A stretch of 61,382 nt of DNA, the filler included, from Basidioascus undulatus (taxonomy: Eukaryota): the NCBI GenBank assembly GCA_000826855.1. It is 4 parts of 4 records of this genome, joined end to end, with 100 filler letters (N's around TTAATTAATTAA, not from the genome) between each part and the next. Parts side by side here need not be neighbours in the genome. Positions count along the whole stretch, not along the records: positions 1 to 15,297 come from JTLS01000650.1; 3 more parts are not named here. The stretch is one strand, 5' to 3'. Shown here piece after piece: positions 1 through 46,137 of the stretch; the stretch's first letter is position 1; each line of letters opens with the position of its first letter. The notes under the pieces are model-generated. The model was not told the DNA's origin. It ran no database searches and saw nothing but the letters and a program-made list of their open reading frames with translations. Made by a program: the position numbers and the translations under genes.

Positions 1-474
1 AACAACGGCACGATGAACCACACCGGAGTCTGAGCCTCAACGATCGCAGTGAAGTTGAACGAGCCAGTCAGAGCCAGTACAACCAGCAGGGTCGCACTCA
101 ACAGCAGTCTGTAGCTGATCATCTGAGCCGTTGACCGCAGACTTCCCAGGAGCGCGTACTTGCTGTTGGCATGACCAGCCGGCGAACAGTGTACCGTAAG
201 TGCCCAGCGAACCGATGGCTAGCGTGTACAGCACATCGAGCGAGTAGTCGCTGATAGCCAGTCCATTGCCGAACGGAATCACAGCCCAGCCAAGCGGACT
301 GACAAGAGCGTGTGATCTCGGGCGCCAAATAAAATAGAGTCTTGTCGGCGTGGGCTGGCACGACATTTTCTTTGACAACTAGCTTCAGGGCATCGGCGAA
401 CGGCTGCATCATGCCGTAGGACCCGACCTTGTTGGGACGACTCGCAGTTGCATCGCGGCTAGCACTTTCCGTTA
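1..474 (-). pseudogene. nad1: Mitochondrial-type NADH dehydrogenase subunit 1 fragment (NUMT-like), disrupted; runs off the contig start
   Basis: Joined frames read [34 protein letters not shown]...[61 protein letters not shown]...FNFTAIVEAQTPVWFIVPL, which are ND1 hallmark motifs. TAA replaces the E of ERK and there are at least 3 frameshifts. Confidence 0.93.
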
Positions 475-708
475 ATGGGTGCACGACTACATTAAATACT
501 TTGGTTGAGATGCCGTGTGTTTCCCTGCGCTGTCGTTCGACGCACCGGAACCTTGAACTGACCTGAGCCGTTTTCAGGGACGAGTGACTCTGTAAGCTTG
601 CGCACACTTGCCGACCCTGACAAAACACTTGGCTGACGAGGATTACTAATCAAGCGGGCATGGCCGAGTAGTGCGCGACAGAGTGCGCTAGGCCAGAATC
701 GGCCTCTG

Positions 709-1161
709 GTGCCACACACGCACGGCGTCCTCGGTCCAACTGGACAGCCTGATCCTGCGCAGTCGTCCGGAAGCGCAGCGAATGCCTACCTCGCGGAGCT
801 TGAGCAGTTCTTTCCGAAGCACGATATCCTCTACATTAGCAGCGAAGACTTCGCCTCCCATGCGGCTCGCTCTTTTCATCATGGCACACTTCGATGCCTC
901 AAGCCGGACGGCTGTGTGACCTATCGCCGGAGCAGCCGCCGCGCCGTCAAGGCATTCTTGACGTCCGTTGAGCCGGGCCGCCTCCCGGAGCTCCGAGATG
1001 TAGTCCTCGATGATGAGATGTTCAGAGAGGATAGTGAGATGGACGAGGAGGAGGTGCAATGGCTGGAGCGGTTGGATGTCATTCTGGCCATGAAGGGCGT
1101 TGCCTTGCTGGATCGCCTTGGCGGTCTGTTTGAGGACATACGGTGGGGATACGAATGGTAA
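709..1161 (+). pseudogene. C-terminal fragment of an F-box/LRR-type hypothetical protein
   Basis: 150-codon ORF with coding-like composition, starting at GTG with no ATG-bearing 5' part. Its tail (LPELRDVVL...LERLDVILAMKGVALLD) resembles the tail of the F-box relic at 18-19.3 kb. Confidence 0.4.
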
Positions 1162-1854
1162 TGAAGGGGGAGGAGTAAATTCCAGGGTAAAATTTTGAAG
1201 TCAAAGCTGCTTTTACCTGTTGTAGGTGGAATGTGGCACAGCGATTGCATAACTGGACCGTTACTCTGAGGCTGCCGAACGGCTGGCTTGTTGACGGTAC
1301 TTCCTGTTGACTCCGTATGATCGGGTTCGCCGCATATCAAAGACCCCATTTCAATCGGTATCAAATTGTTCGGGTTCTCCGAAGCGTTGACTCTTCACTT
1401 TGCCTTGCCGAAATCGGTCGTTTAGGACATGTTGTGTGCGTAGCCTTTGCAGTTAGCCCGAGATCGTGCCAAAAATCCCTTCCGTAGATGTTTTTCCCCT
1501 TTCGTACAGAACACCTTGTGTATAAATGTTACGCGTACTACAAGCTCGAAGTCACGGCGCAATGCATTGTGTGCAAGCACACCATCTCTGCCTGTGCGAC
1601 TGGGTGGGGATTACACTCTGAAAGATGCCTGTGTAGTTATAGTTATGAATTTTCCTCCATACTCATCTTGACCCGCTGTAGCTTTTCGAAGAGAAGAACT
1701 GGATGTCCATCGTGATGAGCTCGGTGAAATGACACTTTCGCAACGTTCCACAAATTCCCACGCTGAGCGCCTTCTTGTGACCTCGAACTGGCGTCATCAA
1801 GGAATGGGCAACTCCTCGTGAAGACGGAGGGCTTGTCCTCTTCAACTCCTACCG

Positions 1855-3366
1855 ATGCTATTCACCCGATCCGCTCTGCGCACACTCACATCAGTTTCCA
1901 GAGCAGCAGCCACGCCTATCGCACTCCTTTCACCCCAATCCACCCCGACACGCACGATGAGCAACAACACGCACACGCACCAGAAGATGCTCGAGCGTGT
2001 CAAGCTCCTCATTCCCCCGCTTTCCGGGAAGCTGCACAAGGGCCAAGCAGGTATGATTTGCCTTGGTTTTATATAGCTTGATGATGCTGAAGGTGGATCT
2101 GCGTGGCAGGCCGTCTTGGTGTTGTTGGAGGATCGGCGGATTACACTGGTGCACCGTTCTTCTCTGCGATGGGCGCGATGCGGATAGTGAGTCCATACCG
2201 CACACATAGACTAAAGAGATTCTGGCCCTGATGGCGAAGTGGGCAGGGTGTCGACCTTGCACACATCATCTGCGAGCCCACAGCCGGAAGCGTGATCAAG
2301 ACCTACTCTCCAGGTATGTCTTCGAGACTCTCGCGTTCTCAAGGCTCACTCTGACGGTTTTCCTTCCAGACCTCATCGTCCACCGCATCCTCGACTTCAA
2401 AACGTCCGTCAGCCCTACTCCAACTGCATTCCTCGGACACTTGCTCACTCGCTCGCCCGTTCCACAGTCCTAAGGCGGATATCGAGAAGACCTTCGCCGG
2501 TCTAATCGAGCGTCTACACGTGCTTGTCGTCGGCCCGGGTCTCGGTCGGGACGACCACATGCAGTCGTGCGCAGAGCTCGCGATCCGGCTCGCCCGCGAG
2601 AAGGACCTCGGGCTCGTCATCGACGCCGACGGGCTGTGGTATGTCCAGAACCACCCGGACGCGATCAAGGGCTACAAGCTGGCCATCTTGACCCCGAACG
2701 TCATGGAAATGAAGCGACTAGCGGAGAAGCTGGTATGTCTACCCCTCCGCCGCCACGAGGACTTGGCTGATATGCTCATTCCCCGGACGGATAGAACCTC
2801 AGCACGGACGAGGACCCTAAGACCCTCGCCTCGCGCCTGTCGAAAGCTCTTGGAGGCGTGACGGTTCTTCAGAAGGGGCCGGAGGACATCATCTCCAATG
2901 GCAAGGAGACGTTGACCGTGGACGTGAAGGGCGGCTTGAAGCGCTGCGGCGGTCAAGGAGACATCCTCTCCGGCGCAGCGGGCACGCTTCTCGCGTGGGG
3001 GCGGACGTACGAGGAGGGTGTGGGCGCGTGAGTCGTTTGTTCTCTCTCTGCTTGGACACACGCTCATCAGTGTACGCTGCTTGAACAGGGACGACAAGGG
3101 CTCGAAGGAGGACAAAAGCATCGCTCTGGAGGACATCTCGCTGCTCGCCGCGTACGGCGCCAGCACGTTCAATCGGACGTGCAGTCGTGTCACGTTCGAG
3201 CAGCAGGGCCGCTCGATGGTCACGGACGACATGCTCCCCAACATCAAGGTCGCGTATGCTGAGGTGTTTGGTGACCCGGTGCGTTCGCCGCCGGCTTTCG
3301 GATATCTGAACTACAGGCGCTAACGATACCCCCTCGACGTTGCAGCTGAAGGATGCGAAGCTCTAA
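1855..3366 (+). CDS. NNR2: ATP-dependent NAD(P)H-hydrate dehydratase (YjeF-C/NAXD/CARKD), multi-exon
   Basis: Motifs [62 protein letters not shown] across GT-AG introns. In-frame ATGs at 1855 and 1957. Last exon 3346-3366 encodes LKDAKL*. Confidence 0.95.
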
Positions 3367-3724
3367 GCAGGGGGTAGATGTGTATGGACTTTGAATGCGT
3401 AACAAATTGACATTGAATGAAAGCGAGATAGACCTTGTATTCGTACAGGCATCGCGTTAGATGATGAACCTGCAAGCCTTGCCAGCCGTTGGCCACCAAG
3501 TGCATGATACTTTATCTTCGCATCTCACGGTCGAATTCCGCCTCCCTCACTTTACCTCAGTTGAAATGCAGATCAACAAATTGAGCTCGTATATAACGAC
3601 TGCATGTCCCTGCCTATTGCTGCAGGCCTAATGCGCAGCGCCGAGAGTCTCTCCATTAATCCATGATACACTTTCCGCCCGGTAGCGATGCTAGATTAAT
3701 AAGTATACGCCCAAGATACCCCGC

Positions 3725-4181
3725 TCATTCCACCTCCATGTCCGGCTCGAGGCCTGCAGCCGTGCTCGGAACGTCCACAGACACATCGAAGTCCAACTCC
3801 GGATTCCAGCTCGCCAGCCGGACGGCGCCGTTCAGAGCTGCCATCGCACGCCTCTCAGCTTCAAGGAACAACCATCGACCTGCTGAGAGAGAGAGACTCA
3901 CGAGTGTTGCGCTTCGGCCCCTTCCTCTTCTTCTTCCCCTTCCGCTTCTTTAAAGCCCGCCGCAGGACGACGCGCACTGCCGCGCGCGCAGAGCGCTGCG
4001 AGAGCTTCGAGGCGAGGCGGAACTGCTCGCTGAGGTGCGGGAGGGCCGCGTCGATCTCGGAGGAAGTAAGGAGTCCGTTGGTGGAGTTTGGCGGGTAGAT
4101 GAGGCGTCGGAAGGGAGGGAGGATGAATGCGGTTGCGTGGAGGGTGGCGCCCAACGCGAAGAGAGCAATATCGCCGAGCAT
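3725..4181 (-). CDS. Small hypothetical protein (hydrophobic N-terminus, basic KKRKGKKKRK stretch), 2 exons
   Basis: MLGDIALFALGATLH...KRNT, then a GTGAGT..AG intron, continuing PERRAMAALNGAVRLASWNPELDF...MEVE*. Confidence 0.5.
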
Positions 4182-4722
4182 CGCTGCGAAGGGAGAGGGG
4201 GAGATTTCGAGGAGGAGGAGGGATGGGTGGGAGAGGAGCATTGGTCTCCTTAAGTGGTCGGGAGGAGAGATGTTGTTTATGAGGCTGGCTGGCCAGCCAG
4301 GCGCTTAGGGGGTCGGAATGCAGTCTGAGACTTCCGGACATGCCACACGTTGAGTGCATAATGGACCAAGTAGGGTGTGCCAAGCTTCCCTATGGAGTGC
4401 CTTCATTTTCAATTGAACTTGAAGTTTTTAGGAGGCTCAGGTAAGAAACAAGCTGGTCGGTGCGCAGTGAGCGGCAACTTGCGAACCCCTAGATGCCGCC
4501 CGACTGCTCTCTGAGCACTGTGTAGGCCAAGAAATCCTACACGTTCATATTTGGGAGTTAATCTTGGATAATCTTGAGGGGGTGATCTGATGCCTCGTGC
4601 ACTTGAGAACCGAAATGGAGCCAGGCACTGCTGCCGTTGGCAACCCCTCGTCCAATGACCAGAATGCCCGGGCTGCCATTTCCGTGTCTAATAAACGCAC
4701 ATCGACCCGCTGCATACCATGC

Positions 4723-4731
4723 TATATAAAA
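4723..4731 (+). promoter_or_regulatory. TATA box of the GH43 gene
   Basis: TATATAAAA about 85 nt upstream of ATG 4812, followed by a pyrimidine-rich leader. Confidence 0.55.
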
Positions 4732-4811
4732 GGAGGCCTGTTCAACTCACTTCCCCATAGCTTTCCTCCCCTCTTTCCTACTCCGAACTACGATCACGAC
4801 CGTCAACGAGA

Positions 4812-6355
4812 ATGCTGTCTTCAGTTGTTTCTCTCCTTCCCCCCTTAACACTGGCCCTCACGTTTCCCGCACCCGCTGGTGGTGACGGGCGGTACTTGGA
4901 CTCATAATCCTGCTGTTGCCGTATTGGACGGGAAGTACTACCTGTTCTCCACGGGCGGCGGCGTCCCCATTCGCACTGCGACGTGCTTGAGCGGGCCATG
5001 GACCAACATCTGTGAGGCGTTGCCGGGGGGTTCGAGAGTCGACCATGGCAAGCCTGAAAAGTTCTATCTTGTTTCTGGGCACAGATCATTGTAGGGACTA
5101 ACAGCCGGTTTGTACAGCCAATGCCGCCGACATTTGGGCGAGCGGGTGGCGTCGTTGCGAACTTCCCGGCCACGATCTGACATATTCGTTTCTTGAACTT
5201 CCAGGCATCGGAATGTCGTATATTGGCCCGTAAACAAGCAGTTATACATGTACTGTACGTGGCAAAGCACCTTTTCATTCGGTTGCCACCGAGTTGCGTT
5301 GGCAGACACCGTATCCTCCTTCGGTAGTCAAAACTCTGTCCTCGGGGTTGCCAAGTCTTCCAGGCTCGCACCCGGCACATGGTCAGGTACGAAGTTTTTT
5401 ACATTTATTTCACTCTTCATAGTTTCTTCAACCACCCCACTCTGTTGGCAGACCACGGCAAGATCTTTTCGTCAGGGCGGGCGACGTCTACAACGCGATT
5501 GACGGTAATCTCGTGGTTGACTCGGCCGGGCATGGATATCTAACCTTCGGCAGCGTCTGGGGTGATTTATTCCAGCTTCCCCTAGCTTCCGATGGCTTGA
5601 GCGTCGAGCGGAACAGCCCGTACGAGCTCAGCTTCAACTCGACGGGGACCCAAGCCCAGGAGGCCGGGTTCGTGTCGGAAGGGGAACTACTATGTGCGTC
5701 ATTAACCTCTAGCATAGGTATAGGAATGTATAAAACTGATCATGAGGGACATGCACTGGATAGTATCTCTTCTTGTCGGGCGGGTCTTGCTGCAGCCTCG
5801 ACGTCAACACGCCCCCAGCTGGGAATGAGTACCACGTAGGCGCTGTCGGGTCCATCAATACTGGAGGAAGACCCTATTTTCACTGTCCTTTCTCAAACAT
5901 AGACTATCGCTGGACGCTCCTCCTCCACGACTCGGTCCGTTTGTCGACAGCAAGGGCGTCGGCCTCAAGGACAACGGGGGCGACATTATCCTGACCAGCC
6001 GTGCGTTATCACAGGACGACTTCGAAACTCTCTTCGGATTCTGACACATAGTGTATAGACGGTCCTTTTACGCTCCTGGCGGCGGCTCGGTCTTCTATGA
6101 CCCAGCCTCCGGCAAAGACGTGTGTTCTTTTTCCATCGTGAGGCCGAAAGCTCGCTCGCTGACACTCCCAACCTTGCAGATCTACGGCTATCACTGTACG
6201 TCTCTCTTTTGCCGAAGTGGTAATTAATATCTGACAACTAGTTCTCTATACTTATTGTAGACAAATCGCCCAGCACCACAACCGATGCGTCGGCGAAAAT
6301 CGTTCTCAACGCGATCGACTTCAGCTCTGGCTGGCCTGTACTGAAAGCCATTTGA
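4812..6355 (+). pseudogene. Secreted GH43 endo-1,5-alpha-L-arabinanase, frameshifted
   Basis: Signal peptide, then THNP (family HDP), YYLFSTG, VSSFGSQNSVLGVA, YNAIDGNL, YLTFGSVW, QEAGF and a terminal IDFSSGWPV. Frameshifts near 4875 and near 5476. Confidence 0.85.
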
Positions 6356-8070
6356 ATCTGCCCGGAGAAAACTATGCTACATGTTTAAGCCAGAATAATC
6401 CCTTTCAATATGGGCCATTTCCGCACCCTTAGGCTTCCATAGGATTTCGTATGCTTTCCTCTCATGTATGGGCATTAAGGGGGTGGCGGATTGTGTGTCG
6501 CGTGAAGTGGGAGAAGATGCAGCTGCCACTCGATCAGTATGTTTGTGAGACACAACAAGTATAGGCATATGCATTCATTTGCCTCCCAAGCTAAAAATAG
6601 CTTGGTGGGTGCTTTGTTGACTCTGGACCTCGTTCTCCAGAAAGCGGGCGACAACTGTGCTCGCGCGTCAACAGCATACGAAGAGCGAGACGGCAACGTC
6701 TCTAATACAGATACAAAGGAGGAAGAACACAATATGGGTTGATGATTCAAAGAGCGTGAGCCGTGAAGGCGTCCATTGAATGCCCTTACCTAGATTGCCC
6801 AGAGTGGCGCCTCTGTAGGCGTCTTCATTCCGAGAAGGTCGCCAGATGTATGGCCGACAAGAAAGGCTTCCATTGAAAGTTGGATAGATATCCAGTCTTC
6901 TCCCGGCCCAGCCCCTGGCAGATTACACTGCCGCCCATAAAAAAATGCAACTGAGTAAGTAGCTCACTCACCCTAACAGTCCGATAGGGCGTGTACATGA
7001 CGGAATGCTTCTGTTTCCTGGGTATGCACACTTATTAGTGTAAGTGCGTTTGAATCTTTACGGCCTGCTATGAGTGGGTTGCTGGTCAGCCAGCTACATT
7101 AACGAATAGCTCGGACTATCAGCTTGCCGCCCTCTACTCTTTATCGAGCCATAAGTCTTCCTTCCCTTATTCTCTACTTACGAAAATATCTTCAGCTCGA
7201 TCCGACTGGGCTCCAGAAACGACAATCACTCGCACTTGGTACGTAGATTTGCGTGCAGGGGCGAAGATCGAAGATCGCCCTCAACGGAGGGGACCTGAAC
7301 ACTATGTGCACCGGCCATGCACGTTTCCTGCATGGTTCAGTTGAACGCGCCCAGTTTGTAAGTGGTGCTGTAGATTTGTGTAGGCCACCTGTGGGTTGTA
7401 CTGGGGAGGCTCAGGTTCGCCAACTTTCGCCGCATGCCGCTGCAGGCCAGGAAGGTTCTGACTTGCATGCGCAAGCGACAGCCGGAGATCGCGTCCGCAC
7501 TCCGTTGAACTTGGTGAGTGTATCGAGCGGATGGCAGCAAACCTTATCGCACCAAGCAATGGAGAAGATGCTCTGGGAGCTCATGGCAGCTGGCGCAACA
7601 TGCCAAGGTCGGATCTTCGGAGGGCGGCTATCAGTGTCCTCGCTCGGTGAGTGAGGGGCGTTCCTGAATCCCTAAATGAAAAACTGCTACCCGTCAACAG
7701 TCACTTATGCTTCGCCTCTCGACGATTTCGCCCATGGTCAGAGGTTGGGCTGTTAAGGGTTTTTCAGAAAGTTGTTGACAAACAGTTGAAGGTCAACGGA
7801 ACAGCAGCACAAAAGACGGACCGAGACAACTGGAAGCAATAGTAAAGTAAGTATTGAGGCGGGCCGCATTTTAATTAATTTCCTAGTGGAAACTGGCGTC
7901 GGGCGGGCCGGGGCACCTCAGCCGGCCTTGCGCCAGCCTGGCGAAGGCCTTCGCACTAGTTTCGCGCTCTTTCTGCACTATCTTTCCTTCTTCTCCACCC
8001 GTTTCATCCTCCCCCCTCCCTCCTTTTCTGCCCCCTCTCCTGTCCCTGTCTTCCATCGACAACGCCCGCG

Positions 8071-10809
8071 ATGGTCGGCAAATTCGCTGCCAGGATCGAC
8101 GACTTCAACGACCGCGTGGCAGACTCCTTCGTCGGCCGCTTCTTCAGGCTCGATGGGTCTGGTGCGCGCTGGACCTCGTCTGCGCGTCACGATCAGTCGC
8201 TGATCGTAGCGGTTTAATGGGCTTACAGGCCACAAGCGGGCGCGTCCGGGTGCCAAGTTCACGACCGAGATTCGTGCAGGCATCACTACTTTCGGTGTGT
8301 AGTCGGTCTGATTGGCGTGGGAGGAAGGCGGAGCGGAAGGCTGATGGGCGTCCTTATCAGTCGCCATGGCCTACATCATCTCGGTGCGCTTTACACCTAT
8401 TTACTACATCAACCATGCGCTCATTATCCCCCTTTTATAGGTCAATTCGCTGATCTTGAAGGACTCTGGGGGGCCTTGCGTGTGCAATCCTGCCGATCCC
8501 ACGGACACCACCTGCAGCAGGGAGTGCGTGCCTCGCCCTCCCGTTCTTTCTTACCCTGCCCCTCGTCCCTGACTCTCATCGTTCACCTCTTCAGTGAGGC
8601 GTACGCTCTCTGCCAGGCCGAGTTCCAGCGCGACCTCATTGTGCGTGTTCGAGGTGGTGGTCACGGGCGCCGTTGAGGAGCTCACGCTTGGCGCGCTCTT
8701 AGACTGCCACTAGCGCCATCGCGTGCATCGGTTCGCTTCTCATGGGCTTCATGGCTAACCTGCCTGTCGCCGTCGCCCCTGGTCTTGGCCTGAACGGTGC
8801 GTATTCATTTTCTATCAAGGCCGCCGCATTTGGTGCTTATGTCCTGTGTGACCAGCGTACTTCTCGTACTCTGTGGTCGGCATCCGCGGCACGGGCAAGG
8901 TTTCCTATGAGGACGCCCTCGGCGCCGTTTGTGAGCGCTCACATCACAAATGTAACGTCTTCGCTTATACTGACGTTCCTCTGCAGTCCTCGAGGGTATC
9001 ATCTTCATCGCCCTCGCCCTCTTCGGTGTCCGTGCCTGGCTGGCGCGCCTCATCCCGCGCTCTGTCGCTCTTGCGGCTGGCGCGGGTATCGGCTTGTACA
9101 TTTCGCTCATCGGTCTGTCCAGCAACGGACTGAGCGTCATTGGCGGTGATTACGATAACCTCGTGCGTGCTCCGCGATATCTCGTTAGTTGTGAACATGG
9201 CTTACCTTGTGTTGGGTGCAGCTTGGCCTCGGCGGCTGCAGGAGCGAAGATCAGGACCCCGAGCACAAGAACTACTGCAGAACCGACATGCTCATGCGCA
9301 GCCCGACGATGTGGCTCGGTATCTTCCTCGGCGGCATCGTGACTGTTTACTTGATGCTCTACCGTGTCAGTCGATTTCGCTCATCCTTTCCCGGATGATT
9401 CCCTAACGGAGCGACTTCATACGTCCAGGTCAAGGGCTCCATGCTCATTGGTATCCTCCTGGTCTCCATCGTCTCATGGCCGCGTAAGAGCGACGTCACC
9501 TACTTCCCGGACACGGCTGTCGGCAGTACGTCTCACTCATCTCACGCACACCGCCCCGGCAGCGCACTGACGCGTTTTATCCAGACTCCAACTTCGACTT
9601 CTTCAAGAAGGTCGTCACGTTCCGCAAGCTCAAGATGACGGGTGCGGTGCTCAACTTCAACTACCGGAGCGGGCACATCTGGCTCGCGCTCATCTCCTTC
9701 CTCTACGTTGACGTGCGTCCTATCTTGTTGCGTTCCTCGGACAGGAGCTGACTATATGTCGTCTGCACCAAAGTTGCTTGACGCGACGGGCACGCTCTAC
9801 TCCATGGCCCGCTTTGCTGGTGTCATGAACGAGCGCACGCTTGACTTCGAGCACTCTACCTGGGCTTGTTCGTCCCTCAGTCATCCCATGGTAGCTGGCG
9901 AGCCTTGCTGACAGCGATTGCGAATAGACACCGCCGATGCCGCGTCCATCTCAATCGGTTCGCTGATGGGCAGCTCTCCGGCTACCGCTTTCATCGAGAG
10001 CGCTGCTGGTATCGCCGAGGGTGGCAAAACCGGCATCACCGCCATCACCTCTGGCTTCTGCTTCTTCATCTCCATCTTCTTCTCCCCTATCTTGTTAGTT
10101 GGTTCTCCTTCGTTCCCGAGAGGTTCAGGCTGGTGTGACTGACACTTCTTCGTCTCCAGCGCCTCGTTTCCGTCTTGGGCCACCGGTGGTACCCTCGTCA
10201 TCGTCGGCTCGTTGATGGCGAAGAACATCGTGGACATCAACTGGAGCTACGTCGGTGATGCGATTCCGGCGTTCCTGACGCTCATCATGATGCCCTGTAC
10301 GTGGCGCTTTTCTCGGGACACTACAACGACCGCGCTGACGGCGTGATTTGCAGTCGGTTACAACATCGCCTACGGCCTGATCGCCGGTCTGTTGTCGTAC
10401 CTCTGCCTCAACCTTCTTCCATGGGGTCTTCGGTGGGTGTCCGGTGGCAGGATCTCCCCTCCCGATTGGGACAAGAAGGTCAGTTTTCCACAGCAATTCC
10501 ATCTCAGAAACCCTTGCTGATCCCCTCGCGCTCCAGGACCCGTACTGGGAGTCTCAGCGCGCGTACCTCGTCCCGGGCTGGCTTCGTCGTCTCATCAAGG
10601 GCGACAAAAAGTTCTGGAGGGGCGACGACTACGACGAGGAGTTCGATGACTACCCGATGGAGGACGGCGAGTCAGTCAACCAGATGCACCGCACGCGCAC
10701 GTCTGGCACGACCGGCACCGGGTCGCTCGATGCGGACGAGAAGCCCGAGACGCCGAGCGCGCTTGCCAGCCCGGCCGCGTACCCTTCCCCCTCCGGCGAG
10801 CGATCATAA
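8071..10809 (+). CDS. azgA: AzgA-family purine (adenine/guanine/hypoxanthine) permease, many introns
   Basis: FVGRFFRLDGSG, KFTTEIRAGITTF, AMAYIISVN, MGFMANLPVAVAPGLGLN, LLDATGTLYSMA, GSSPATAFIESAAGIAEGGKTGIT, DAIPAFLT, YNIAYGLIAG. Confidence 0.95.
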
Positions 10810-11501
10810 CCGCACGAGTTCCTGGTGGACCTTTGCGGCGGACTCGTTCAGGTCGTGCATGCCATTCCCCTCCTTTTCCCCCTCTCATTTGCTCAATCAT
10901 TCCTATCGTTTAGAAGGGCGTCTGTTGTTTTCATTGCATCGTACCGTATCATATCTTCGCTGGGCTCCCGTTATCAAAATCCCTCTGTTCTCCTCTGGTC
11001 GTTTGCAGCTACCTCTTCCGATACACCTGTATCATTTTAAACATTTCGCCCGTCCACTCCTTTATAATGATATTATCGACAACAATTGTTGTGCAATACG
11101 CTGTCGAGGTTGCATGGAATCGGGTTTGCCTCGCAGCCAGGCAGGGCCGGCGGAGGTCACCATCCTCAGTCGCCGTGACCATGTTACAGAGACCGCGTCG
11201 CGCTGATCTATCCTTTTCCGGGGAGATACGGTATGCGAGGGTGCAACCCACTTCGAACTCTGAAGTGGCTTGGAAGCTCAACTGCTAGCAAGCGGACTAG
11301 TTGCAAATGTCAAAAGGAGCGCGTCGCTCGTCTCAGCGGCGGACTTGCGCGTGCGGCCGGCATCTGAGGCTTCCCTCCCCGCCCTCATCCTCCTGGCTCA
11401 TAACTTTCTCGTCCGGCGCTTCCTCGTTTGCTCTGCACCATTCTTTCGGGCCATCCAGGAGCCGATCAGTGTATATTTCTCAATTCTAACATTCCTTCCC
11501 C

Positions 11502-14500
11502 ATGGACGACATCATCTCCATCGGTGAGCTTCGCCCTTACCCTGCTCTTTCGTCCCTTGCGCTGCCCTGGCTGATCACCTGCCTCTCGCCGCCGCCGCAG
11601 TCAACCGGCTGCAGTACGTCCAGCGCTCATTGCGCATCCTGCGCGCTAAGTGCTGACTCCTAGGCTGGAACCGTGTAGGGACACGTTCAATGCCATCGGC
11701 AAGTCGCGGACCTAGGCGGGAAGATGGGCAGGAGGAGCGTGGCAGACTGACGGTGGGCTTGGGCTGCAGGCGGAGACACGGTCGACTTGCCACAAATAGT
11801 CGTGGTGAGTCGAGGTTGAGCAGTGCGGTAAAGGGGAATGGTGCTCAAGGCGGTGGCGGTCGCGTGCAGGTCGGCAGTCAGTCCGCGGGGAAGTCCAGTG
11901 TTCTCGAAACGTAAGGGGCCTTCTCGCTTCGACCGAGGGGTTTGATTGAGGCTCATGTTGCGCTTCTCCACAGTATCGTCGGACGTGCGTTCTCAGGGCT
12001 CCCAGACCTTGGAGCAAGGGCTCTCACATGCTCACATCTTAATGTTTTCTAGGCGACTTCCTGCCTCGCGGGTCCGGCATCGTCACACGGCGACCGCTCG
12101 TCCTCCAACTCATCCACACGCCCCTTCCCACCAACGCTTCCCCCGCCAACGCGCCGTACACCGAGTACGGCGAATTCCTTCACCTTGACCGCCGCTTCAC
12201 CGACTTCTCCGAAATCCGGCGCGAGATCGAGGGCGAGACGTTCCGTGTCGCCGGCCAGAACAAGGGCATCAGCAAGCTGCCCATTCACCTCAAGATCTTT
12301 AGCCCGAACGTCGTGAACCTCACGCTTGTGGACTTGCCGGGTCTCACCAAGGTGGGCAGATGTCGCTTCTAGGTTTGGGCTGTAGGCGGATGCTGAGGGG
12401 GCTTGGCCATGGGCAGATTCCTGTGGGCGACCAACCTACAGACATTGAGCGGCAGATCCGCAATCTCGTCCTCGACTACATCCAGAAGCCCAACTGGTCC
12501 GCTAGCTTGCTTCTCGAGCTCGGGGGCATGCCTAACATCCCGTGCCCCGCAGTGTCATCCTCGCTGTCTCCCCCGCCAATGTCGACCTTGCCAACTCAGA
12601 CAGTCTCAAGCTCGCGCGCTCCGTCGACCCGCAAGGACGCCGAACGATCGGCGTCTTGACCAAGCTGGACCTCATGGACGCCGGCACGCACGCGCTCGAT
12701 GTCCTCACTGGGCGCGTCTACCCGCTCAAGCTCGGCTTCATCGGCGTGGTCAACCGGAGCCAGCAGGACATCAACGCGAGCATCCCGATGTCGGAGGCCG
12801 CGCAGAAGGAGGAGGAGTTCTTCGCGAACCACGCGGCGTACCGCAACATCTCGCACCGCTGCGGGACCAAGTACCTGGCCAAGACGCTCAACACTGTGAG
12901 TAGGAGTCTGCTTCGGTTCGGCATCGGGGGTGCTGTGGGCTGGCGGGAACGGCTACTGACTGCGGGAGGAACGCCTCATAGGTCCTCATGAACCACATCC
13001 GCGACAAGCTGCCCGACATGAAGGCCAAACTGAACACGCTCATGGGCCAGACGCAGCAGGAGCTGAATGCGTTCGGCGACGCGACCTTCCTGGGCAAGCA
13101 GCACCGGGTGAGTCTCCCCGGCTCTTTCTCGACTGGGACATCGCTGACAATGCGTCAATTCCAGGGGTCCCTGATCCTCAAGCTGATGACTCAGTTCGGG
13201 CGCGACTTCGTCTCCTCCATCGACGGCACGTCGCTCGAGATCAGCACGAAGGAGCTCTCCGGCGGCGCGCGCATCTACTACATCTTCAACGACGTCTTTG
13301 GCCACGCGCTCGAGTCCATTAACCCGACGCACAACCTCACGACGCAAGACATCCGCACCGCGATCCGCAACTCGACCGGCCCCCGACCGAGCCTGTTCGT
13401 CCCCGAGGTCGCGTTCGACTTGCTCGTCAAGCCCCAGATCAAGCTGCTCGAGCCGCCGAGTCTGCGCTGCGTCGAGTTGGTGTACGAGGAGCTGATGAAG
13501 GTAGGCAGGCACCCTTCTAGAGTCTGTGTCGCATCCTGAGCTGACTTGGGTGTCGCAGATCTGCCACAACTGCACGAGCGTTGTACGTTACTAGCAGACC
13601 CGGCTTGTTGGCACTTCCGCTGTACTGATGTTTCGACAGGAACTGCAACGCTTTCCCCGTCTGCACGCTCAGCTCATCGAGGTTGTGTCGGAGCTTCTGC
13701 GCGAGCGCCTCGGCCCGACCTCCGATTATGTCACCAGCCTGATCTCAATCCAAGCCGCGTACATTAACACGAACCACCCCGCATTCGTCTCTGGCTCGGC
13801 GGCGTTCGCGAAGGAGGCCCAGCAGCCGAAGCGTAAGGCGGTCGAGGCCAAGCGGAGGGTGCGTGTCACGGCAGTCTTCTGTTTGCCCCGGTGGCTGACC
13901 CGCTTTTGCTGTGTCTTACAGAAGGTCCCGTCAGCGACGGGCAGCCCTGATGGGCCGTCGGGCGAGGAGGACGAGGCGGAGGAGGGCGACTCACCCGTTG
14001 CCAACGGCATCGCCGCCGCCGCGTCCTCGCAGCGGGAGACTCGCTCCGTGTCCTCGACGCTGCACGACCGGCACCGCAACAACGCCTCGCCGTCCTCGAT
14101 CGCGTCCACGCTGCTGCACCCGAACGGGCCCGAGCCCTCATCGAGCCGGTCCGCCGTCGGCCCCTCCGCCTCCGCCTCCTCATCCTCCCACCACACTGCC
14201 CGCGAAACGTTCCTCAACTACTTCTTTGGCGGGCCCGACGGGCCGAACGTCCCCGCCCCCCGCGGCCAGATCCGCGACATCGATGCAGGGAACAAGCCGC
14301 CCTCCGCGAACCCCATGGGCGGCCGCCGCGGGCTGGAGGGCAGCGCCGCCGCGTTTGACATGAAGAGCTTGGGCAAGCACCTCGAACCGGTACGCCACCC
14401 TCCTCCCATTTCCAAACTACACAAACGACCGTGCCTGCGCTGAACTTGGTTAGGCCGAGCAGCACACGCCCACGGACGCGAACGGATTCGCCATTTCGGA

Positions 14501-15068
14501 GAGGGAAGAGATGGAGATCACCCTGATCCGCTCGCTCATCGCGTCGTACTTCTCCATCGTCCGCCAAACGATCCAGGACATCGTCCCGAAGGTGCGCTAT
14601 CCCTCCTTTTCTACTCTCCCTGGGCCTTTTTTTGCGCAGCGTACGGCGGAGGCTGACGAGGATGACTGGTAACTGCTCGCAGGCGATCATGCACCTGCTC
14701 GTCAACTTCTCCCGAGAGTCGATCCAGGACCGCTTGGTTGCGGCGCTGTACAACCCGGATGTGCGTTTCGCTTCGTTCTCACGCCAAGCGCACTGGGACT
14801 GTGTCTGATGGGATAGCTCTATTGTGCGACTGCAGCTCTTCGACGACCTTCTGTACGAGGACGAGAACATCGTCAACGAGCGGAACAGGGTCAAGGCGCT
14901 CATGGATGCGTACAAGGTTCGTCTGGCTTCTTCCCCCTCTCCGCCCCCCTCCCCCCAACCCACCTACACGTGCTCATGTGCGGTTGGGAACACCTCCAGT
15001 CCGCGTTCCAAGTCCTCGCGGAGGTCAACATGCCCAAGTCCCAGCCGACGTACACGCCCTCCGCCTGA
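11502..15068 (+). CDS. DNM1: Dynamin-related GTPase Dnm1 (mitochondrial/peroxisomal fission)
   Basis: [56 protein letters not shown], an insert with ETFLNYFFG (Dnm1-like rather than Vps1) and [18 protein letters not shown]. Confidence 0.95.
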
Positions 15069-15297
15069 TCCTGACGTCCACACCCTCGTTCCTGTATTCC
15101 CCCGTTCTCATTCTCGCTCTCGACTTCACCTATCACTCTTGTATCGCATCTTTGCTTTGGTTCCTTTTTCAGATTGATATGTTGATTCCTTTGACTCTTG
15201 CGCTTTGAGATTTGAGATCTGTATCGCACGCACGAACGTACACGGGTCGCGTGGGGATGGGGACGGGGATGGGGATGAGGAGGGCTGGGGATGGGCT

Positions 15298-15397
15298 NNN
15301 NNNNNNNNNNNNNNNNNNNNNNNNNNNNNNNNNNNNNNNNNTTAATTAATTAANNNNNNNNNNNNNNNNNNNNNNNNNNNNNNNNNNNNNNNNNNNN
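15298..15397. other. Artificial 100-nt contig linker (N44-TTAATTAATTAA-N44)
   Basis: Six-frame-stop 12-mer embedded in Ns; identical at three places. Confidence 0.98.
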
Positions 15398-30669: not shown

Positions 30670-30769
30670 NNNNNNNNNNNNNNNNNNNNNNNNNNNNNNN
30701 NNNNNNNNNNNNNTTAATTAATTAANNNNNNNNNNNNNNNNNNNNNNNNNNNNNNNNNNNNNNNNNNNN
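30670..30769. other. Artificial contig linker
   Basis: N44-TTAATTAATTAA-N44. Confidence 0.98.
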
Positions 30770-46037: not shown

Positions 46038-46137
46038 NNNNNNNNNNNNNNNNNNNNNNNNNNNNNNNNNNNNNNNNNNNNTTAATTAATTAANNNNNNN
46101 NNNNNNNNNNNNNNNNNNNNNNNNNNNNNNNNNNNNN
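46038..46137. other. Artificial contig linker
   Basis: N44-TTAATTAATTAA-N44. Confidence 0.98.

Follow-up and report, generated by a model that had tools for sequence, protein, structure and literature searches.

A single-copy NAD(P)HX dehydratase gene of Basidioascus undulatus with candidate peroxisomal and mitochondrial targeting signals

In plants, NAD(P)HX dehydratase (NAXD) genes employ alternative translation starts for organelle targeting. The human enzyme occurs in mitochondrial, cytosolic, and ER forms according to the consulted sections of PMC9804276, which agree with a premise of the preliminary description of the present locus, namely that animals also use alternative NAXD starts for this purpose. 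The same sections report that dehydrogenases are inhibited by hydrated NADH (PMC9804276). Peroxisomes maintain a separate pool of NAD(H)/NADP(H) (excerpts of PMC9549241), and peroxisomal isoforms derived from splicing, as had been presumed, and from stop codon readthrough are likewise known from fungi (excerpts of PMC9549241 and PMC4207609). The clearance of NADHX in peroxisomes is unaddressed in the literature that we searched. The current study describes a NAXD gene from the basidiomycete Basidioascus undulatus, which bears candidate targeting signals at both of its ends.

The window, i.e. the whole stretch of 61,382 nucleotides that was analyzed, includes N runs at positions 15298–15397, 30670–30769, and 46038–46137, and only positions 1–15297 map to the assembly contig G000:C2604. 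The gene rebuilt from the window consists of 8 exons and 7 GT-AG introns of 56–67 nt on the plus strand (Table 1), and its exons join into an uninterrupted 360-codon frame that runs between ATG1855 and TAA3364–3366 and has the C-terminal end LKDAKL. All of the features noted previously, including the 34-aa acid-free extension, ATG1957, the 67-nt last intron with its signals, and LKDAKL, were reproduced in the rebuilt gene. The identification as NAXD was upheld as well. Exons 5 and 6 both match Pfam PF01256 (Carb_kinase) above the curated cut-off, the model aligns with the Cryptococcus enzyme of PDB 6EFW over 340 positions, and it contains the complete set of family motifs (HKGQxGR, GGSxDYxGAP, GPGLGR, DADGL, TPNxxE, KG, and GGQGD), which are invariant or nearly so in our alignment. 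We take these motifs to have catalytic roles. The nearest named matches are from Wallemia, with 66% identity to the Wallemia mellicola NAXD, and the closest relatives in the metagenome scan reach about 60% protein identity at best. By its domain, structural match, and motifs, the gene product is a predicted ATP-dependent (S)-NAD(P)HX dehydratase and the sole copy of the genome. Since the genome yielded a single NAXD match, any compartment needing this activity would have to obtain it from the same gene. An apparent fusion of Wallemia NAXD to guanylate kinase (P0001 and P0007) was rejected as an annotation run-on, as the P0001 cluster has a 312-aa member and the P0004 cluster has 313-aa members.

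Table 1. Positions of the features of the rebuilt NAXD gene within the window
Feature	Position	Strand	Basis or remark
Five-codon upstream ORF	1804..1821	+	Relevant only with a transcription start above 1804
First ATG, in frame and weak in context (C at -3), with the presequence-like extension of 34 aa	1855..1956	+	
Internal ATG (A at -3), start agreeing with fungal orthologues	1957..1959	+	
Coding exon 1	1855..2050	+	Gene model
Exon 2, GGSxDYxGAP	2110..2186	+	Gene model, motif
Exon 3	2247..2313	+	Gene model
Exon 4	2370..2403	+	Gene model
Exon 5, GPGLGR, DADGL, TPNVME	2468..2732	+	Pfam PF01256, 62 bits (cut-off 27)
Exon 6, QKG, GGQGD	2795..3027	+	PF01256, 44.6 bits; PDB 6EFW, E 7.9e-16
Exon 7, final helices of domain	3089..3278	+	Gene model, alignment
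Introns 1 to 7	2051-2109, 2187-2246, 2314-2369, 2404-2467, 2733-2794, 3028-3088, 3279-3345	+	Rebuilt gene model
Intron 7, 67 nt, GTGCGT...GCTAAC...TTGCAG	3279..3345	+	TAA 3321-3323 in frame if retained
Terminal micro-exon, LKDAKL-stop with PTS1 -AKL	3346..3366	+	

Our preferred reading, to which we assign a probability of roughly 0.55, is that splicing of intron 7 is the default and that leaky scanning adds a minor mitochondrial isoform to an enzyme otherwise shared between the cytosol and peroxisomes. In the normal mRNA, intron 7 would be spliced out. Most ribosomes would bypass the weak ATG1855 and initiate at ATG1957, and the resulting product ending in -AKL would undergo Pex5-dependent import into peroxisomes, probably incompletely, leaving the remainder as the cytosolic pool. 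Presumably, a PTS1 signal of moderate strength would set this sharing between the two compartments. A minority of ribosomes would initiate at ATG1855, with the added presequence directing the product to mitochondria, and the spliced long isoform would then bear both signals. Retention of intron 7 may yield an extra form lacking the PTS1, which is not needed for this scheme. Its components differ in strength. A cytosolic and peroxisomal enzyme, and with it the existence of a peroxisomal isoform, is highly probable from the sequence features described below, and a minor mitochondrial isoform generated by leaky scanning is reasonably likely, whereas the chances that peroxisomal and mitochondrial isoforms both exist are about even.

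One of the key issues is the status of intron 7, as the preliminary description had portrayed the PTS1 as a cryptic splice product and ascribed the cytosolic pool to retention of the intron, in which case the protein would end in ...GYLNYRR and carry no PTS1. The signal is more convincingly interpreted as the regular terminus of the protein. The spliced, -AKL-ending form is probably the usual NAXD product, because intron 7 surpasses the other six introns in its branch point and alone has a full CTAAC, most of the splice alternatives preserve AKL (donors 3219, 3249, and 3264; acceptor 3351), and the genomic NAXD loci of agaricomycetes and ascomycetes reach the tripeptide uninterrupted by an intron. 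Likewise, retention is not required to explain a cytosolic pool, since incomplete peroxisomal import suffices. Two further options for intron 7 were rejected: an acceptor at 3316 would create a 38-nt intron, which is below every intron of the gene, and acceptors at 3360–3377 would abolish the PTS1, but no new CTRAY-type branch point is visible for them.

It is nonetheless conceivable that the enzyme has three destinations with its cytosolic form arising from intron 7 retention as a real, possibly regulated switch. A precedent of sorts is found in locus L003, which lacks the internal introns, yet retains a terminal GT-AG intron of 53 nt, its protein ending in GAA, whereas protein P0175, identical to it in 320 of 322 residues with the final two as the exception, ends in GRL, exactly the spliced reading. 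Both cluster with Ceratobasidium proteins, and we take L003 to be a transcript and P0175 to stem from a spliced contig. The annotated NAXD ends of the Ceratobasidiaceae are similarly divided (n = 25), with 9 GRL, 13 of the intron-read-through type, and 3 GRV/GRT/GRA, and alternative splicing of the Trichoderma naxe gene depends upon blue light, as described in the consulted part of PMC12232718. However, the L003 intron has a different position and phase (11 nt vs 21 nt before the end for intron 7), so that homology between the two introns is not shown, and most orthologues are intron-free there. The divided annotations may simply be noise from gene callers missing a micro-exon, and a single retained contig can be an unfinished pre-mRNA. 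Given these objections and the quality of the intron 7 branch point, we consider a retention switch unlikely as an account of the three destinations, and physiologically meaningful retention of intron 7 in B. undulatus is doubtful.

A separate peculiarity was encountered in a Tilletia-like NAXD (L005:2940–2960, L006), which ends FGDP-TAG-AAL-TAG, as compared to FGDPQAAL in its relative P0127. The TAG preceding AAL could mean that the PTS1 is reached by readthrough or that it was lost recently. The Ustilago trichophora entry P0144 ends at the position of this stop, and the L005/L006 NAXD frame also features an 87-aa basic upstream extension.

At the opposite end of the B. undulatus gene, the extension initiated by ATG1855 contains 4 Arg, 5 Ser, and 7 Thr among its 34 residues, with no Asp or Glu and a net charge of +4. 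There is no further ATG between ATG1855 and ATG1957, the latter of which has the strong context of the two. The short isoform places 26 residues before HKGQ, as compared to 18–33 in most fungal orthologues. Among 5000 shuffles, 2.1% produced an AUG-started extension of 15 aa or more that was basic and devoid of acidic residues, and such an extension precedes 37 of the 1656 ATGs in the window (2.2%). The amphipathic moment of the extension (0.70) was attained by 4.4% of shuffles. Using our own pattern, we detected no TOM20-type motif in the NAXD extension, nor in that of its partner enzyme, the epimerase NAXE. The Arg located two residues ahead of Met35 presumably agrees with a mitochondrial-processing motif, although this is a weak point. 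From its composition, a NAXD presequence is plausible. It would be lineage-restricted at best, because it is absent from nearly all of the 59 distinct starts among the metagenome NAXD loci (5 have a long AUG extension, of which a single animal-like one is acid-free) and occurs in Rhizoctonia only in a short form, as a basic 8-residue extension in 10 of the 12 entries among the matches listed. In one other locus (L007:10–100), the NAXD ATG is preceded by an extension that contains Arg, lacks acidic residues, and begins with an in-frame CUG (A at -3), a possible near-cognate mitochondrial start.

The extension could also be a chance feature of a pyrimidine-rich leader, with ATG1855 lying outside the mRNA or remaining unused and the enzyme confined to the cytosol and peroxisomes. 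Extensions of any composition with at least 15 aa appear in 21% of shuffles, the feature was chosen after the fact, and hardly any of the fungal NAXD loci examined possesses it. Furthermore, human cytosolic NAXD restored NADHX levels in patient fibroblasts (consulted sections of PMC9804276). Even so, such an exclusively cytosolic and peroxisomal distribution seems improbable, as an extension both acid-free and basic is found in just 2% of shuffles, short basic extensions characterize most of the aforementioned Rhizoctonia entries, and an acid-free extension recurs in NAXE, both in the same genome and in Wallemia.

The NAXE gene of B. undulatus (L002:885–2013, G000:C2602) encodes a 262-aa model, in which a 22-residue acid-free basic extension leads to an internal ATG that coincides with the start in orthologues, and which terminates in -ANL. 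The acid-free character of the extension was matched by 2.7% of shuffles, its amphipathicity is ordinary (matched by 49% of shuffles), and the second ATG has T at -3 and no strong context. In the Wallemia mellicola NAXE annotation, an Arg-rich acid-free 14-aa extension precedes the second Met. The C-terminal ends of NAXE relatives exhibit a pattern of their own, with 86/117 ending in x[KR][LM] (55 of them QKL) as compared to 1.2% of internal positions; only 3/117 fit the strict PTS1 consensus. This sample comprises the 117 relatives of <300 aa among 120 matches listed and is mostly from Agaricomycetes. Since the NAXE gene is built like that of NAXD, the repair pair probably acts in mitochondria, the cytosol, and peroxisomes. 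For the multi-destination targeting originally proposed from the NAXD gene, this layout provides independent support as far as the peroxisomal and mitochondrial isoforms are concerned, whereas retention is not required for a cytosolic form.

Returning to the NAXD C-terminus, its -AKL fits the strict PTS1 consensus [ASCP][KRH]L as quoted in the consulted part of PMC13343957, and AKL is found together with ARL, GKL, SNL, and SKF among the PTS1 dodecamers of candidate Ustilago maydis cargoes (PMC9133605 Table 1, consulted in excerpt). These sources corroborate its designation as a genuine fungal PTS1 type. Of 5000 shuffles, 0.32% placed a canonical PTS1 behind a YAG acceptor 45–100 nt past the donor. 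A Pex14 domain is encoded in the genome. To gauge conservation, we counted both the strict consensus, which has a background of 0.4% at internal positions, and a relaxed PTS1-like pattern, which was written after data inspection and matches 2.5% of internal positions. Named proteins were hand-picked complete entries, excluding fused, partial, and near-duplicate ones, and 81 metagenome loci were examined, of which 8 were excluded (self, truncated, or fused) and duplicates were merged. Strict signals are found in 19/28 distinct ascomycete-like metagenome loci, in 3/5 named ascomycete proteins, and among basidiomycetes in 1/26 Pucciniomycotina and none of the remaining groups. Basidiomycete ends are mostly GKL/ASL/GSL, and the relaxed pattern captures 21/22 Agaricomycetes outside of the Ceratobasidiaceae (15 of them GKL), 8/9 Tremellomycetes, 17/26 Pucciniomycotina, 13/25 Ustilaginomycotina, 1/2 Dacrymycetes, and 0/2 Wallemia, where the ends are KNL/DNL. 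With a similar pattern, 6/23 Mucoromycota and 0/4 animal proteins have PTS1-like ends; those of Malassezia-type and Mucoromycota NAXD are mostly devoid of a signal. Across eukaryotes, 134 complete representatives at 50% identity include 7 strict and 29 relaxed matches. As the counted relatives share kinship, all of these counts exaggerate independence. The conservation anticipated among orthologues was thus largely observed, by the strict consensus in the ascomycete-like loci and mostly by the relaxed pattern in basidiomycetes, although Wallemia is without a canonical signal.

Two further aspects of these ends bear mention. Firstly, the tail ahead of the tripeptide can be as short as 6 or as long as 32 aa while the small-x-Leu end is maintained, as would be expected from selection acting upon a terminal signal. 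Secondly, most basidiomycete NAXD combine a weak tripeptide with Lys/Arg at -4, and the NAXD of B. undulatus, like many ascomycete-like loci, combines a strong tripeptide with Asp/Glu at -4. That no meaningful peroxisomal pool exists, with -AKL after Asp being too weak or buried in an oligomer and the enzyme being effectively cytosolic, with or without mitochondria, is quite improbable: Asp occupies -4 in only 1/121 of the PTS1-like ends collected, Wallemia as the nearest named relative has no canonical signal, and the enzyme names are absent from two peroxisome-proteome supplements, but ESKL, DSKL, and DAKL ends are frequent in ascomycete-like loci and a small-basic-Leu end kept over varied tails, in both enzymes and two phyla, would otherwise be hard to explain.

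Several observations were also made elsewhere in the window and genome. Upstream of the NAXD gene, positions 637–1161 (+) contain a 174-codon open frame with no Pfam match. Positions 4800–6000 (+) contain an intron-containing gene resembling, by eye, a secreted GH43-type arabinanase. Positions 1–473 (-) hold a frameshifted nad1 fragment that shares 93.9% identity across 475 nt with an intact nad1 (G000:C2989; L085, L092), and the fragment appears to be mitochondrial DNA that was copied into the nuclear genome. The intact copy resides on a 10-kb contig with tRNA-Pro and with nad4L-, nad5-, and rRNA-like sequence, the latter three named by eye from translations. Among C2989 (L092), C2990 (L094, L095), and C1477 (L086), the mitochondrial-type contigs are unusually GC-rich with many short repeats, the GC content being 55% in C2989 and 48–49% around cox1. 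To our knowledge, a GC-rich mitochondrial genome is unusual for fungi. A contig of 22% GC, which may be a contaminant, carries a second nad1 together with a nad4-like gene.

The conservation of PTS1-like ends in both repair enzymes suggests an unrecognized peroxisomal repair function, and judging from the ends compared here, the peroxisomal address is apparently widespread in fungi and common to both enzymes. We found no report of peroxisomal NAXD or NAXE in the literature searched, which was mostly open-access. NAXD may well have been listed earlier among predicted PTS1 proteins in subscription literature such as fungal peroxisome inventories. NAD(P)HX repair terms had no matches in the consulted main texts of PMC9549241, PMC4207609, and PMC10906886. 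NAXD/NAXE terms were likewise absent from the supplementary material to PMC13343957, PMC9513677, and PMC7049704 (including Histoplasma and yeast peroxisome proteomes), whose tables may use identifiers only. The yeast gene names for NAXD and NAXE are absent from the main text of PMC6582344. Several budding-yeast-like NAXD representatives, identified as such from their sequences, lack a PTS1, which is why the peroxisomal function may have been missed. More speculatively, many fungal peroxisomes might hold full NAD(P)HX repair (dehydratase and epimerase) by means of a deliberately weak PTS1, with each gene of the Basidioascus lineage serving three compartments and the share being tuned per lineage through terminal-intron retention (this species and the Ceratobasidiaceae) or stop codon readthrough (L005/L006); we regard this extended scenario as tentative and rather unlikely in its entirety.

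When compared to the described systems, the preferred reading of a spliced default product with leaky scanning at its start has parallels to each of them. Like mammalian NAXD/CARKD, the B. undulatus locus would, as one gene, use a presequence at the N-terminus together with an internal start that gives rise to the cytosolic form; unlike it, the third address is C-terminal, whereas animal proteins end FES/LEN and a peroxisomal isoform is unmentioned in the consulted sections of PMC9804276. The Cryptococcus neoformans NAD(P)H-hydrate dehydratase (PDB 6EFW/6EFX) shares 53% identity and the same motifs and ends in GKL, but its annotated start lacks a presequence. The Cryptococcus leaky-scanning genes (aminoacyl-tRNA synthetases and Glo2) similarly combine a weak AUG, a presequence, and a strong in-frame AUG, although they serve only the cytosol and mitochondria and have no PTS1 according to the excerpts of PMC7049704. 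In U. maydis GAPDH and Candida albicans 6PGD, a PTS1 is contingent upon a 3' RNA event, either splicing or readthrough (PMC9549241, PMC12232718, and PMC4207609, each in part); there the PTS1 form is cryptic, whereas in Basidioascus NAXD it looks like the default. Ptc5 and other dual-signal proteins have mitochondrial and peroxisomal signals at opposite ends, as would the spliced long NAXD (excerpts of PMC10906886). Unlike Ptc5, NAXD shows no evident membrane anchor after the candidate presequence. The transit route of Ptc5 to peroxisomes is reportedly linked to such an anchor, and a transit of this type is therefore unlikely for NAXD. The enzyme and each of the targeting devices are already known from these systems, and what is new is apparently the peroxisomal compartment and the combination of the devices within one gene.
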